Shown one piece after another: positions 1 to 7,559 of a DNA stretch of 64,000 bases. Where the stretch lies: NCBI RefSeq assembly GCF_056712565.1, contig NZ_CM160072.1. One strand, 5' to 3'. The notes beneath the pieces are model-generated. The model did no database searches, was not told where the DNA came from, and saw only the letters and a program-made list of their open reading frames with translations. How positions within the stretch are numbered: position 1 is the first letter of the stretch; the number at the start of each line of letters is the position of its first letter. The translations under genes and the position numbers were made by a program.

Positions 1-1875
1 ATTGCAACCTCCTGGGAGAGATGCAATAAGCTGATGAAACGGGAGACATGGAACGTACCACACCAGGCCCAGGGCGTGACATTTGCTTCTATTTATCGGC
101 GTAAGAAAGCGATGCTGACGCTCGGGCAGGCTGCGCTGGAAGATGCCTGGGAATATATGGCATCGCGAGAGTGTGCGTTGCTTATCCTCGATGAAACCGC
201 CTGCATTCTCAGCCGTAATGGCGATCCGCAAACCTTGCAGCAACTAAGTACACTGGGATTCAATGACGGCACGTATTGCGCCGAGGGAATTATTGGTACT
301 TGTGCGCTATCGTTAGCGGCTATCTCTGGTCAGGCCGTGAAAACGATGGCCGATCAACATTTCAAACAGGCACTCTGGAACTGGGCCTTTTGCGCAACGC
401 CGTTGTTTGACAGCAAGGGCCGATTGACGGGAACAATAGCGCTGGCGTGTCCGGTTGAGCAAACTACCGCAGCTGATTTGCCGTTGACGTTGGCAATCGC
501 ACGCGAGGTCGGAAATTTACTGCTGACGGACAGTTTGCTCGCTGAAACTAACCGTCATTTAAATCAACTTAATGCCCTGTTAGAAAGTATGGATGATGGC
601 GTGATTAGCTGGGACGAGCAGGGTAATTTGCAATTTATCAATGCCCAGGCGGCGCGGGTCTTGCGCCTTGACGCGACGGCAAGTCAGGGACGAGCAATCA
701 CTGAACTCTTAACGTTACCCGCCGTATTGCAACAAGCAATAAAACAGTCACATCCGCTCAAACACGTAGAAGCCACCTTTGAAAGTCAGCATCAGTTTAT
801 TGATGCGGTGATAACCCTTAAACCGATAATAGAAACGCAGGGAACCAGCTTTATTTTATTGCTCCATCCTGTGGAACAGATGCGGCAGTTAATGACCAGT
901 CAATTAGGAAAAGTCAGCCATACCTTCGCTCATATGCCACAGGACGATCCGCAAACCCGCCGCTTGATTCATTTTGGTCGCCAGGCGGCACGCAGTAGCT
1001 TTCCTGTCCTGCTTTGTGGAGAAGAGGGCGTGGGCAAGGCACTGCTAAGTCAGGCAATTCATAATGAAAGCGAGCGTGCAGCGGGGCCTTATATCGCCGT
1101 CAATTGTGAGTTATATGGTGATGCGGCGCTGGCGGAAGAATTTATTGGTGGCGATCGCACGGATAGTGAAAATGGCCGTCTGAGTCGGCTGGAACTGGCG
1201 CACGGCGGCACGCTGTTTCTTGAAAAGATTGAATATCTGGCGGTGGAGTTACAGTCTGCCTTGCTTCAGGTTATCAAGCAGGGGGTTATCACGCGACTGG
1301 ATGCGCGGCGTTTAATACCCATTGATGTCAAAGTGATTGCCACAACGACCGCGGACCTCGCAATGCTGGTGGAACAAAATCGTTTTAGTCGCCAGCTGTA
1401 TTACGCGCTGCATGCATTTGAAATTACCATCCCGCCACTGCGTATGCGGCGTGGCAGCATTCCGGCGCTGGTGAATAACAAATTACGCAGCCTTGAAAAA
1501 CGCTTCTCTACGCGGCTGAAAATTGATGACGATGCCCTCGCTCGCCTGGTTTCCTGTGCATGGCCTGGCAACGATTTTGAACTTTACAGCGTCATCGAGA
1601 ATCTTGCTCTGAGTAGTGATAATGGGCGCATTCGCGTCAGTGATTTGCCGGAACATCTGTTTACCGAGCAGGCGACAGATGATGTCAGCGCCACCCGCCT
1701 TTCCACCAGTCTGTCATTTGCGGAAGTTGAAAAAGAGGCAATTATTAACGCAGCCCAGGTCACAGGCGGTCGCATTCAGGAAATGTCGGCTTTACTTGGA
1801 ATCGGCCGCACCACGCTGTGGCGGAAAATGAAGCAACATGGCATTGATGTGAGTCAGTTTAAGCGCCGTGGATAG
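1..1875 (+). CDS. dhaR: DhaR, sigma54-type (AAA+/Fis-HTH) transcriptional activator of the dihydroxyacetone kinase operon; 5' end cut by window edge (frame stays open back to position 1)
   Basis: ORF 34..1875 translation has GAF/PAS-like N-terminus, a sigma54-activator-like AAA+ core (GEEGVGK, GGTLFL) and C-terminal HTH; in-frame codons 1-33 have no stop (..IATSWERCNKL MKRETW..), matching remembered DhaR sequence. Confidence 0.85.
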   Translation: MATSWERCNKLMKRETWNVPHQAQGVTFASIYRRKKAMLTLGQAALEDAWEYMASRECALLILDETACILSRNGDPQTLQQLSTLGFNDGTYCAEGIIGTCALSLAAISGQAVKTMADQHFKQALWNWAFCATPLFDSKGRLTGTIALACPVEQTTAADLPLTLAIAREVGNLLLTDSLLAETNRHLNQLNALLESMDDGVISWDEQGNLQFINAQAARVLRLDATASQGRAITELLTLPAVLQQAIKQSHPLKHVEATFESQHQFIDAVITLKPIIETQGTSFILLLHPVEQMRQLMTSQLGKVSHTFAHMPQDDPQTRRLIHFGRQAARSSFPVLLCGEEGVGKALLSQAIHNESERAAGPYIAVNCELYGDAALAEEFIGGDRTDSENGRLSRLELAHGGTLFLEKIEYLAVELQSALLQVIKQGVITRLDARRLIPIDVKVIATTTADLAMLVEQNRFSRQLYYALHAFEITIPPLRMRRGSIPALVNNKLRSLEKRFSTRLKIDDDALARLVSCAWPGNDFELYSVIENLALSSDNGRIRVSDLPEHLFTEQATDDVSATRLSTSLSFAEVEKEAIINAAQVTGGRIQEMSALLGIGRTTLWRKMKQHGIDVSQFKRRG

Positions 1876-1900
1876 CGGGAGAGTATGCACTCTCCCGCGT
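1876..1900. terminator. Inverted repeat gcgggagag-N7-ctctcccgc between convergent dhaR and the small lipoprotein gene; possible bidirectional terminator (no clear U-run)
   Basis: Perfect 9-bp inverted repeat read directly in sequence. Confidence 0.3.
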
Positions 1901-1912
1901 ATGACTTGCTAA

Positions 1913-2089
1913 TTAATAGCGACCATGACTGCCATGATTTGGCCCACCATTTGAAGGTGGCATTGGCTTACCGGAAGCCGCAGGACCACGCGGGCCATCG
2001 TTGTGGCGGTGATGATGGTGAGGAACACAAGCACTTAACAGGCTCGCGAAGACAATTGCTAACAGGCTGAAGATAAATGTTTTTTTCAT
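1913..2089 (-). CDS. Small (58 aa) His-rich putative lipoprotein: MKKTFIFSLLAIVFASLLSAC-VPHHHHRHNDGPRGP...; possible periplasmic metal-binding peptide
   Basis: ATG at 2089-2087 preceded by AAGAG Shine-Dalgarno-like sequence; signal peptide with lipobox-like LSAC; HHHHRH cluster plus more His near C-terminus; ORF track lists it as 1913..2143 with upstream extension. Confidence 0.5.
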   Translation of the reverse strand: MKKTFIFSLLAIVFASLLSACVPHHHHRHNDGPRGPAASGKPMPPSNGGPNHGSHGRY

Positions 2090-2107
2090 GACAAACTCTT
2101 GAACGGT

Positions 2108-2123
2108 TAATGCACTGTGATTG
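2108..2123. promoter_or_regulatory. CRP-consensus-like palindrome TGTGA-N6-TCACA located about 20-35 bp upstream of the small lipoprotein start codon
   Basis: tgtgattgttatcaca read directly; matches both CRP consensus half-sites. Confidence 0.35.
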
Positions 2124-2213
2124 TTATCACATAAAAGCCGCATTGTTAATATTGCCAGGAGTCTGATTATGACTTTCGGTAACTCAGAATTGAAAGAAGC
2201 AGCGTAGCAGGCG

Positions 2214-2246
2214 TAAAAAAGCCATTATGTGCGACTCACATAATGG
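2214..2246 (-). terminator. Rho-independent terminator downstream of ychF (11-bp stem gccattatgtg/cacataatggc, U-run on minus strand)
   Basis: aaaaaa + perfect hairpin on plus strand = hairpin + TTTTTT on minus strand, just 3' of ychF stop. Confidence 0.6.
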
Positions 2247-2278
2247 CTCGTTATTAACCGCCAGGATATTACGCGGAA

Positions 2279-3370
2279 TTAGACGTTGAACAGGAAGTTC
2301 ATCACATCGCCATCTTTAACGATGTAATCTTTGCCTTCTGCACGCATTTTGCCTGCTTCTTTCGCGCCTTGTTCACCTTTGTAAGTGATGAAATCTTCAA
2401 ACGAGATGGTTTGTGCACGGATAAAGCCTTTTTCAAAATCAGTATGGATTTTGCCCGCTGCCTGCGGCGCGGTTGCACCAACCGGAATGGTCCATGCACG
2501 CACTTCTTTCACCCCAGCGGTGAAGTAAGTTTGCAGGTTCAGCAGCTTATAACCGGCACGGATCACACGGTTCAGGCCCGGCTCTTCCAGCCCAAGCTCC
2601 TGCATAAACTCGTCACGCTCTTCGTCGTCCAGTTCGGCAATGTCTGCTTCAACAGCAGCACAAACCGGAACTACAACAGAACCTTCTTTCGCTGCGATTT
2701 CACGCACCTGGTCAAGATACGGGTTGTTTTCAAAACCGTCTTCGTTGACGTTGGCGATGTACATTGTTGGTTTTAGCGTCAGGAAGCTCAGGTAACGAAC
2801 AGCCGCTTTCTCTTCAGCGCTTAAATCCAGCGCACGCAGCATACCTGCGTTTTCCAGCTGGGGCAGGCATTTTTCCAGTACCGCCAGCTCGGCTTTCGCG
2901 TCTTTATCGCCACCTTTGGCTTTCTTCTGTACGCGATGAATCGCACGTTCACAGGTGTCGAGATCCGCCAGCGCCAGTTCGGTGTTGATAACTTCAATAT
3001 CATCCGCCGGGTTAACTTTGCCGGAAACGTGAATGATGTTGTCATTTTCAAAGCAGCGAACAACGTGACCGATCGCTTCGGTTTCACGGATGTTGGTCAG
3101 GAACTGGTTACCCAGACCTTCGCCTTTCGATGCGCCTTTTACCAGACCGGCGATATCGACAAATTCCATGGTCGTGGGAAGTGTACGCTGCGGTTTCACG
3201 ATTTCAGCCAGTTGATCCAGGCGAGGGTCAGGCATTGGTACGACGCCAGTGTTCGGCTCGATGGTGCAGAATGGAAAGTTGGCCGCTTCAATACCGGCTT
3301 TGGTCAGCGCGTTGAACAGGGTAGATTTCCCGACGTTGGGCAAACCGACGATACCGCATTTGAATCCCAT
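2279..3370 (-). CDS. ychF: Ribosome-binding ATPase YchF (Obg-family GTPase/ATPase)
   Basis: 363-aa ORF; P-loop [12 protein letters not shown] domain; length and sequence match E. coli YchF. Confidence 0.95.
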
Positions 3371-4071: not shown

Positions 4072-4348
4072 GTTTTTTTGTCCTGAGTGTGTACATAACT
4101 GGCGCGTAGTTTACTGGTTGCGGCCCCGCTTGACAAAAAACTGCGTATCAAATGCAGATAATGCAATTATTGCCTGAGTGGACTATTAGAAAGTCAAGGT
4201 GTTCAGGCGTTTATTTGTAAAGTTTTGTTGAAATAAGGGTTGTAATTGTGATCACACCCGCACATAACCTACAGGGTGTTGTCTATACTTTACACATAAG
4301 GAAGAGGGGTATACCCTGTTACAACCCAGAAAGTTCCGGAGGTGACAT

Positions 4349-4627
4349 ATGAAACGCAAAAACGCTTCGTTACTCGGTAACGTGCTCATGGGGTTGGGTC
4401 TGGTGGTAATGGTGGTCGGCGTGGGGTATTCAATCCTCAACCAGTTACCACAGTTTAATATGCCCCAGTATTTCGCACATGGTGCAGTGCTAAGTATTTT
4501 CGTCGGTGCGATTCTCTGGCTGGCAGGTGCCCGTGTTGGCGGGCATGAACAGGTGTGCGACCGTTACTGGTGGGTTCGCCACTATGACAAACGTTGCCGC
4601 CGTAGCGATAATCGCCGTCATAGCTAA
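4349..4627 (+). CDS. ychH: Small inner-membrane protein YchH
   Basis: 92-aa ORF with two hydrophobic segments; position between pth and dauA as in E. coli. Confidence 0.85.
   Translation: MKRKNASLLGNVLMGLGLVVMVVGVGYSILNQLPQFNMPQYFAHGAVLSIFVGAILWLAGARVGGHEQVCDRYWWVRHYDKRCRRSDNRRHS

Positions 4628-6485: not shown

Positions 6486-7559
<1,074 letters not shown>

Follow-up and report, generated by a model that had tools for sequence, protein, structure and literature searches.

A conserved small gene for a histidine-rich, lipoprotein-type protein between dhaR and ychF in Escherichia, and the CRP-type palindrome upstream of it

The dhaR–ychF interval, its distribution and its alternative contents

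We analyzed a 64-kb stretch of DNA (the window, to which all positions refer unless a locus is named) that is 100% identical to Escherichia coli ATCC 11775, the type strain of the species. The gap between dhaR and ychF spans positions 1876–2278 (403 bp), as set by the open reading frame (ORF) ends of dhaR at 1875 on the plus strand and of ychF at 2279 on the minus strand, and the following features lie in and around it.

34–1875, plus strand: dhaR, convergent left neighbor, 5′ end cut by the window (ORF list and RefSeq annotation of the identical ATCC 11775 locus)
1875–1898: GC-rich hairpin with a 10-bp stem, where dhaR and the small ORF converge (plus strand z −4.9, minus strand z −5.4; fold −19.7 kcal/mol)
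1913–2089, minus strand: small 58-aa lipoprotein-type gene, stop included (RefSeq WP_001362932.1)
2003–2020, minus strand: codons of the His block H24–H29 (HHHHRH) of the small gene
2027–2029, minus strand: codon of the lipobox Cys21 of the small gene
2030–2089, minus strand: predicted signal peptide, codons 1–20 of the small gene
2097–2101, minus strand: Shine-Dalgarno-like AAGAG, 7 nt before the ATG, read from the sequence and invariant in all lineages
2116–2131: perfect CRP-core palindrome TGTGAT-TGTT-ATCACA, TGTGATTGTTATCACA
2120–2149, minus strand: predicted sigma-70 promoter, with −35 TTAACA at 2144–2149, an 18-nt spacer and −10 AACAAT at 2120–2125; predicted start near 2113
2166–2171, minus strand: alternative −10 CATAAT (5/6 matches), with a weak −35 TTCAAT at 2189–2194, found by eye; start near 2159
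2215–2249, minus strand: ychF intrinsic terminator, 13-bp stem and U-tract (fold −24.2 kcal/mol, z −4.8), retained in E. albertii
2277–2291: last ychF codons, an att-like core duplicated at island junctions of other strains (overlapping matches 1–592 and 578–751; junction sequences)
2279–3370, minus strand: ychF, right neighbor (ORF list and RefSeq annotation)

The hairpin at 1875–1898 carries no U-tract on either strand and the terminator scan makes no call there, leaving a non-canonical bidirectional terminator as a possible function; the C1892T change of the common allele preserves a G-U pair within it. Across 1700–2450, no Rfam family matched at E ≤ 1.

A preliminary description of this DNA had stated that K-12 carries ycgV between the two genes and had pointed to an interval of only about 400 bp here, which agrees with what we found, as K-12 MG1655 holds about 3.7 kb with ycgV at this place. 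Similarity between K-12 and the window ends at 1868 and restarts at 2277, and because it is lost before the dhaR stop, the exchange boundary falls inside the end of dhaR. The last dhaR codons are mosaic, with a cluster of changes at 1850–1854 separating alleles (window 1850–1875; locus L003 2260–2267). Comparing the K-12 ycgV segment with the 403-bp interval revealed no similarity at the DNA or protein level, and blastn and tblastn detected no trace of the small ORF in the ycgV-type intervals of K-12 or of E. coli HH97, the sole exception to this search for remnants being a 79% match on the ychF-terminator side of HH97. The ycgV segment occupies exactly the same gap, from the last dhaR codons to the ychF stop, but is 3.7 kb rather than 0.4 kb long and is unrelated to the small gene in sequence and in kind of protein, such that the two are alternative fillings of one locus. 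HH97 itself (locus L012 3083–4033) represents a fourth state of the locus in which ycgV is in fragments, and its ychF-proximal 110 nt are 79% similar to window 2145–2247.

The preliminary description had proposed comparing this interval across E. coli genomes, and doing so placed it in 1297 of 5426 complete genomes, including CFT073, NC101, O25:H4 ST131, a strain labeled 648, ST73 and B2/F-type strains, as well as in four more Escherichia lineages. The compact order dhaR / small ORF / ychF recurs in E. whittamii, Escherichia sp. E1V33, E. marmotae and a divergent lineage labeled ‘E. coli’ (DhaR 93% identical). This last lineage (GCA_012294705.1 and related contigs; loci L016–L019 1224–2579) also possesses an additional gene, for an MFS transporter, in the treA–dhaM gap, a position where ATCC 11775 and CFT073 do not have it. 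The E. albertii contigs examined lacked both the ORF and the palindrome, and their gap measured 160 bp with the ychF terminator kept; DhaR is shortened to 527 aa there (locus L020 6001–7744; also L021 and L022), and the gap holds an 8-bp inverted repeat, ATTACCCT...AGGGTAAT. Since roughly three quarters of E. coli genomes and the examined E. albertii contigs lack the gene, it must be dispensable. Five plasmid matches to the interval fell on large, non-mobilizable records that are probably chromosomal pieces.

Among the carrier genomes, 690 of 1297 have the interval directly adjoining ychF and the others have an island between. Such genomic islands, inserted at the ychF 3′ end in many strains (about 600 of the 1297), have a core that duplicates the last 13–15 nt of ychF, ttagacgttgaac (window 2277–2291), with copies at 6580–6593 of locus L002, at 8400–8416 of L005 and at about 800–817 of L009 and L011. 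Their cargo includes a retron Ec67 and an ABC-three-component system in an ST131 strain and, elsewhere, a DEAD/DEAH helicase with an HTH protein and integrase fragments, the latter adjoining the small-ORF side. The space between dhaR and ychF can be filled in three ways: with the small gene, with ycgV or with integrase-borne defense islands.

A comparison of window 1876–2278 with loci L004, L014 and L019 shows two deeply diverged alleles of the interval in E. coli, about 6–7% apart (pS about 0.2) in flanks that are 99.4–100% identical; between the type strain and CFT073, for instance, the interval is 93% identical and dhaR, ychF and pth are 99.4–100% identical. The type-strain-like allele (at least 99% identity, 123 genomes) is 97–98% identical to the alleles of E1V33 and of the divergent lineage, whose flanks are only 88–95% identical. 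Because the alleles of these other Escherichia lineages resemble it more closely than the majority B2 allele does, the comparison suggests that the type-strain allele was imported by homologous recombination, and the majority allele shows a level of divergence that would match vertical descent.

A small gene under purifying selection and its predicted lipoprotein product

The 58-aa product, WP_001362932.1, already stands in RefSeq as a hypothetical protein, and divides into a predicted signal peptide, MKKTFIFSLLAIVFASLLSAC, and a mature part, VPHHHHRHNDGPRGPAASGKPMPPSNGGPNHGSHGRY. Its leader begins with MKK followed by TFIFSLLAIVFASLL. The hydrophobic stretch counts 15 residues, inside the 7–22 that define such a core in lipoproteins, Kyte-Doolittle 9-residue means reach 3.0 across residues 3–17, and the leader ends in LSAC, such that L18-S19-A20-C21 matches the lipobox pattern [LVI][ASTVI][GAS]C. 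These lipobox residues are identical in all 11 aligned alleles despite synonymous changes in the A20 and C21 codons, and UniRef names the E. marmotae copy ‘Lipoprotein’. In the Lol pathway, the residue at +2 (Asp or not) governs lipoprotein sorting, and the Val that follows Cys21 therefore predicts sorting to the outer membrane. The mature part of 38 residues has 7 His, 7 Pro, 7 Gly and 3 Arg (pI about 10) and is predicted to be disordered, AlphaFold2 giving a helix at residues 3–20 only and a pLDDT of about 59 for the remainder. Directly after Cys-Val-Pro comes the HHHHRH block, unchanged in 11 of 11 aligned alleles, though rare protein variants do alter it (Q24, loss of RH, R28H). Both the lipoprotein-like peptide with its LSAC lipobox and the His-rich mature part of the preliminary description are borne out in the ORF at 1913–2089; the protein fits all the sequence criteria of a lipoprotein, and its lipidation at Cys21 is what these would predict. 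A longer 76-aa reading from the ATG at 2143 was rejected: each of the three variable sites checked in the extension is nonsynonymous when read this way, the signal peptide would end up buried, and it is the ATG at 2089 that the Shine-Dalgarno sequence serves.

We evaluated selection on an alignment of eleven distinct alleles from at least 5 Escherichia lineages with 25 variable columns in the ORF. This revealed 19 synonymous versus 8 nonsynonymous changes in the annotated frame (synonymous-site fraction 0.23; binomial p = 2e-7), with 4–6 synonymous changes in the other frames, except for the antisense frame that shares wobble positions (17 synonymous, as expected). A plus-strand 61-aa ORF at 1885–2070 was dismissed on the same grounds, showing 5 synonymous versus 18–22 nonsynonymous changes. 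Pairwise pN/pS was mostly 0.05–0.2 between clearly diverged alleles, and pS reached 0.3. Where aligned lineages differ in length, the reading frame is kept (E. marmotae and E. whittamii have +6 nt), a −6 nt variant of the protein also exists, and frameshifted protein variants form clusters of 1–3 sequences with one contig each, as against at least 1000 contigs for each of the main alleles.

From this we conclude that 1913–2089 is a genuine gene maintained by selection. One could instead read the ORF as a chance, non-functional frame or as the scar of a lost ycgV or other gene, given that it is short, of low complexity, without a family and missing from most E. coli, and the preliminary description had itself raised the deletion scar. 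The synonymous excess, the in-frame indels and the rarity of frameshifts effectively rule this out, the excess being confined to the annotated frame; furthermore, the gene is kept across species whose flanking genes differ by 4–12%, being conserved in the four other Escherichia lineages, and the ORF has no similarity to the ycgV segment. We therefore hold a chance frame or scar to be extremely improbable.

A protein search with the 58-aa peptide, another check that had been proposed, returned matches confined to Escherichia: a HMMER search of 1.84 billion representative proteins gave only the gene's own cluster, and a word-indexed search of 5.8 billion clusters gave only Escherichia variants. 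Searches of Pfam, NCBIfam and PADLOC yielded no significant family, and the sequence matches in the PDB cover the His block of the query with the N-termini of unrelated chains, which look like expression tags. The literature searched yielded no published study of the gene, nothing on CRP-cAMP at this locus and no usable UPEC transcription-start map.

Several known systems resemble the small protein in part. The entericidins EcnA/EcnB, OsmB and LptM/YifL share its plan of a 40–70-residue precursor with a signal peptidase II lipobox and a short, unstructured, envelope-anchored mature peptide, but homology to them is not detectable, the small gene is confined to part of Escherichia, and none of them is known to have a histidine cluster. 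The LptM model (NCBIfam NF047847) reaches 13.8 bits, below its curated cut-off of 27.7, and aligns to residues 1–21, the signal peptide only. Histidine-rich metal-binding segments occur at the ZinT N-terminus, in the ZnuA loop, in PcoE/SilE and in Hpn, and the likeness here is one of composition only, a His run in a flexible segment, with no homology and with no metal-regulated promoter or metal-related neighbor detected at the small gene. Judged by its sequence, the protein belongs to none of the entericidin, OsmB, LptM or His-rich metal-binding families. A hisL-type leader or attenuator read through His codons was also rejected, as the next downstream gene is the convergent dhaR and purifying selection extends over the whole 58-aa frame, beyond the His run.

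The palindrome and the predicted promoter

The palindrome at 2116–2131 is the sole perfect TGTGA-N6-TCACA in the 64-kb window, where 0.05 would be expected and where 5 of 100 shuffles had one. CRP sites are 22 bp long with a TGTGA-N6-TCACA core, and all ten core bases as well as the inward-flanking T and A (TGTGAT/ATCACA) match the consensus here. Of the preliminary description of this element, the perfect palindrome stands and the stated distance of 20–35 bp upstream does not, as it lies 27–42 nt from the A of the ATG at 2089. Conservation is concentrated around it: all 16 of its columns are constant in the 11 alleles, which represent at least 5 lineages, and over 2090–2135 a single column in 46 is variable versus 28% in flanking non-coding DNA (p = 4e-6). 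In each of the 1296 E. coli records with the interval, a 45-nt block at 2094–2138 is at least 99% identical, and it is 100% identical in every sampled row, the two main interval alleles being about 6% apart overall.

The predicted sigma-70 promoter is the sole promoter-like site that a consensus scan found on the correct strand (9/12 matches), at a level where chance would be expected to give about one 9/12 match in the region. Neither hexamer varies, and the columns that do (2136, 2137 and 2139–2141) all fall in the predicted spacer, a restriction of variation that is as expected of a real promoter. A start near 2113 would put the palindrome at about −18 to −3. The alternative upstream −10 hexamer, CATAAT, is likewise invariant but lies below the scan threshold, and from its start the palindrome would sit at about +36.

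This geometry constrains what CRP could do. With its center at 2123.5, 34.5 nt from the ATG, the palindrome is indeed too close for class-II activation, as had been pointed out; activation with the center near −41.5, −61.5 or further upstream would require a start inside the ORF, and 2089–2096 contains no −10 element. CRP consequently cannot be a class I or class II activator of the small gene from either promoter. Because the palindrome overlaps the predicted −10, bound CRP would hinder transcription, and if CRP does bind, repression by occlusion or by a roadblock would be the simplest outcome. A precedent is cyaA P2, a CRP-repressed promoter whose CRP site overlaps the core promoter: the likeness lies in a consensus-like CRP site over the −10 and start, where binding excludes RNA polymerase, and the difference is that in the present case promoter and CRP binding alike are predicted.

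By-eye comparison with other operator architectures (Fur, Zur, DeoR, LacI-family, DnaA-box and MerR-type) gave no better fit than CRP, and a comparison of the same kind with the operators of Fur, Zur, NikR and MerR gave no convincing metal-regulator box. The idea that the palindrome folds into a hairpin within the RNA of a long 5′ UTR was set aside, as such a hairpin would be no stabler than shuffled sequence (z −0.2). A second CRP-like site, TGTAATTGTGATCACA, with one mismatch to TGTGA-N6-TCACA, lies at window 4241–4256, in the pth–ychH gap some 100 nt before ychH starts at 4349 and about 2 kb from the small gene; ychH is reported to be regulated by CRP. Paralogy between the small-gene and ychH promoters was not significant (16 of 300 shuffles did as well, and the regions are otherwise dissimilar).

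Interpretation and rival readings

Taking gene, protein and upstream region jointly, we favor a genuine, Escherichia-restricted prolipoprotein gene whose product would be a metal- or proton-binding outer-membrane lipopeptide made from a weak, CRP-occluded sigma-70 promoter, a combination that we regard as about evenly balanced between right and wrong. Under this reading, the MKK-hydrophobic-LSAC leader would pass through Sec, signal peptidase II would cut before Cys21, which would be lipidated, and Lol would carry the 38-residue mature peptide to the inner leaflet of the outer membrane by virtue of the Val at +2. The mature tail, basic, Pro/Gly-rich and predicted to be unstructured, would then hang into the periplasm with its HHHHRH cluster first, and its most likely activity may be the reversible binding of a divalent metal (Zn, Ni or Cu) or of protons at the envelope, the step of which we are least sure. 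Transcription would most likely start from the weak TTAACA/AACAAT promoter, whose −10 lies within the CRP-core palindrome, with cAMP-CRP occluding RNA polymerase, or blocking it if the upstream CATAAT promoter is used, and the gene being turned down at high cAMP. The ycgV segment of K-12-type strains would be an alternative filling rather than the source of the gene. Against this explanation stand a promoter whose match is at chance level, the second candidate −10 upstream of it and the dispensability of the gene; against metal binding in particular stand the lack of a metal-regulator box or metal-related neighbor at the locus and the fact that low-complexity tails rich in His can equally well sense pH or mediate protein contacts. 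A bolder version, in which a lineage-born orphan gene encodes an outer-membrane-anchored His-rich lipopeptide that buffers or hands over periplasmic Zn, Ni or Cu and is directly switched off by cAMP-CRP, strikes us as rather improbable.

Readings that accept the gene can still depart from ours over its regulator. The palindrome may be no CRP operator but the site of another dimeric regulator, or may be conserved for the −10 and start themselves, which we consider unlikely though a serious contender: its position bars CRP activation of the small gene, and constraint on the core promoter explains the invariance equally well. Weighing against this are the complete match of the core and flanking T/A to the CRP consensus at the only perfect site in 64 kb, the failure of the Fur, Zur, DeoR, LacI-family and MerR-type operators to fit better by eye, and the one-mismatch site upstream of ychH, 2 kb off, from which it follows that CRP-type sites are used in the neighborhood. 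The palindrome might also serve a CRP-dependent promoter on the plus strand that makes a short transcript antisense to the ychF 3′ end, with the small-ORF promoter being repressed indirectly as in crp autoregulation; in favor of this stands a TAATAT hexamer at 2147–2152 (plus strand). We judge this quite improbable, as it would place the CRP center at about −36 rather than −41.5 or −61.5, and the would-be transcribed 2161–2212 belongs to the interval's more variable stretches and has no Rfam family match.

Other readings differ over what the protein does. It could be an envelope or stress lipoprotein of the entericidin, OsmB or LptM type that works through protein or membrane contacts, with its histidines as pH-titratable charges, a doubtful but by no means negligible alternative that gains from the same size class, the lipobox, the predicted short, Gly/Pro-rich, unstructured mature part and the absence of a metal-related genomic context. 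It loses from the lack of sequence similarity (the LptM score falling at half its cut-off, with no significant Pfam match) and from the six HHHHRH codons being unchanged in the eleven alleles, even if rare variants do touch the block. A stranded phage lipoprotein, such as an Rz1-type outer-membrane spanin or a superinfection-exclusion lipoprotein, seems barely credible to us. Rz1-type spanins are likewise Pro-rich outer-membrane lipoproteins (as predicted here) of about 60 aa, and a marginal match was obtained with phrog_542 (E 0.002–0.004; function of the family unknown), but the small gene has no partner gene, lysis cassette or phage homologue, its neighbors being dhaR and ychF; tblastn against 50,697 phage records was empty, no phage genes adjoin it in the compact loci, and its chromosomal position is fixed in several species.

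This is a modest find that does not overturn current understanding. It takes a hypothetical ORF that roughly one in four complete E. coli genomes carries, the type strain, ST131 and ST73/CFT073 among them, and turns it into a well-supported gene with a predicted promoter region and a candidate regulator, among small envelope lipoproteins and lineage-restricted orphans, which are under-studied. A His-rich lipoprotein could bear on metal handling during infection. Should the bolder version hold, the extra-intestinal pathogenic B2/F lineages would have their envelope metal handling tied to carbon status, with other phylogroups holding the adhesin-like ycgV in place of a gene for a His-rich lipopeptide.
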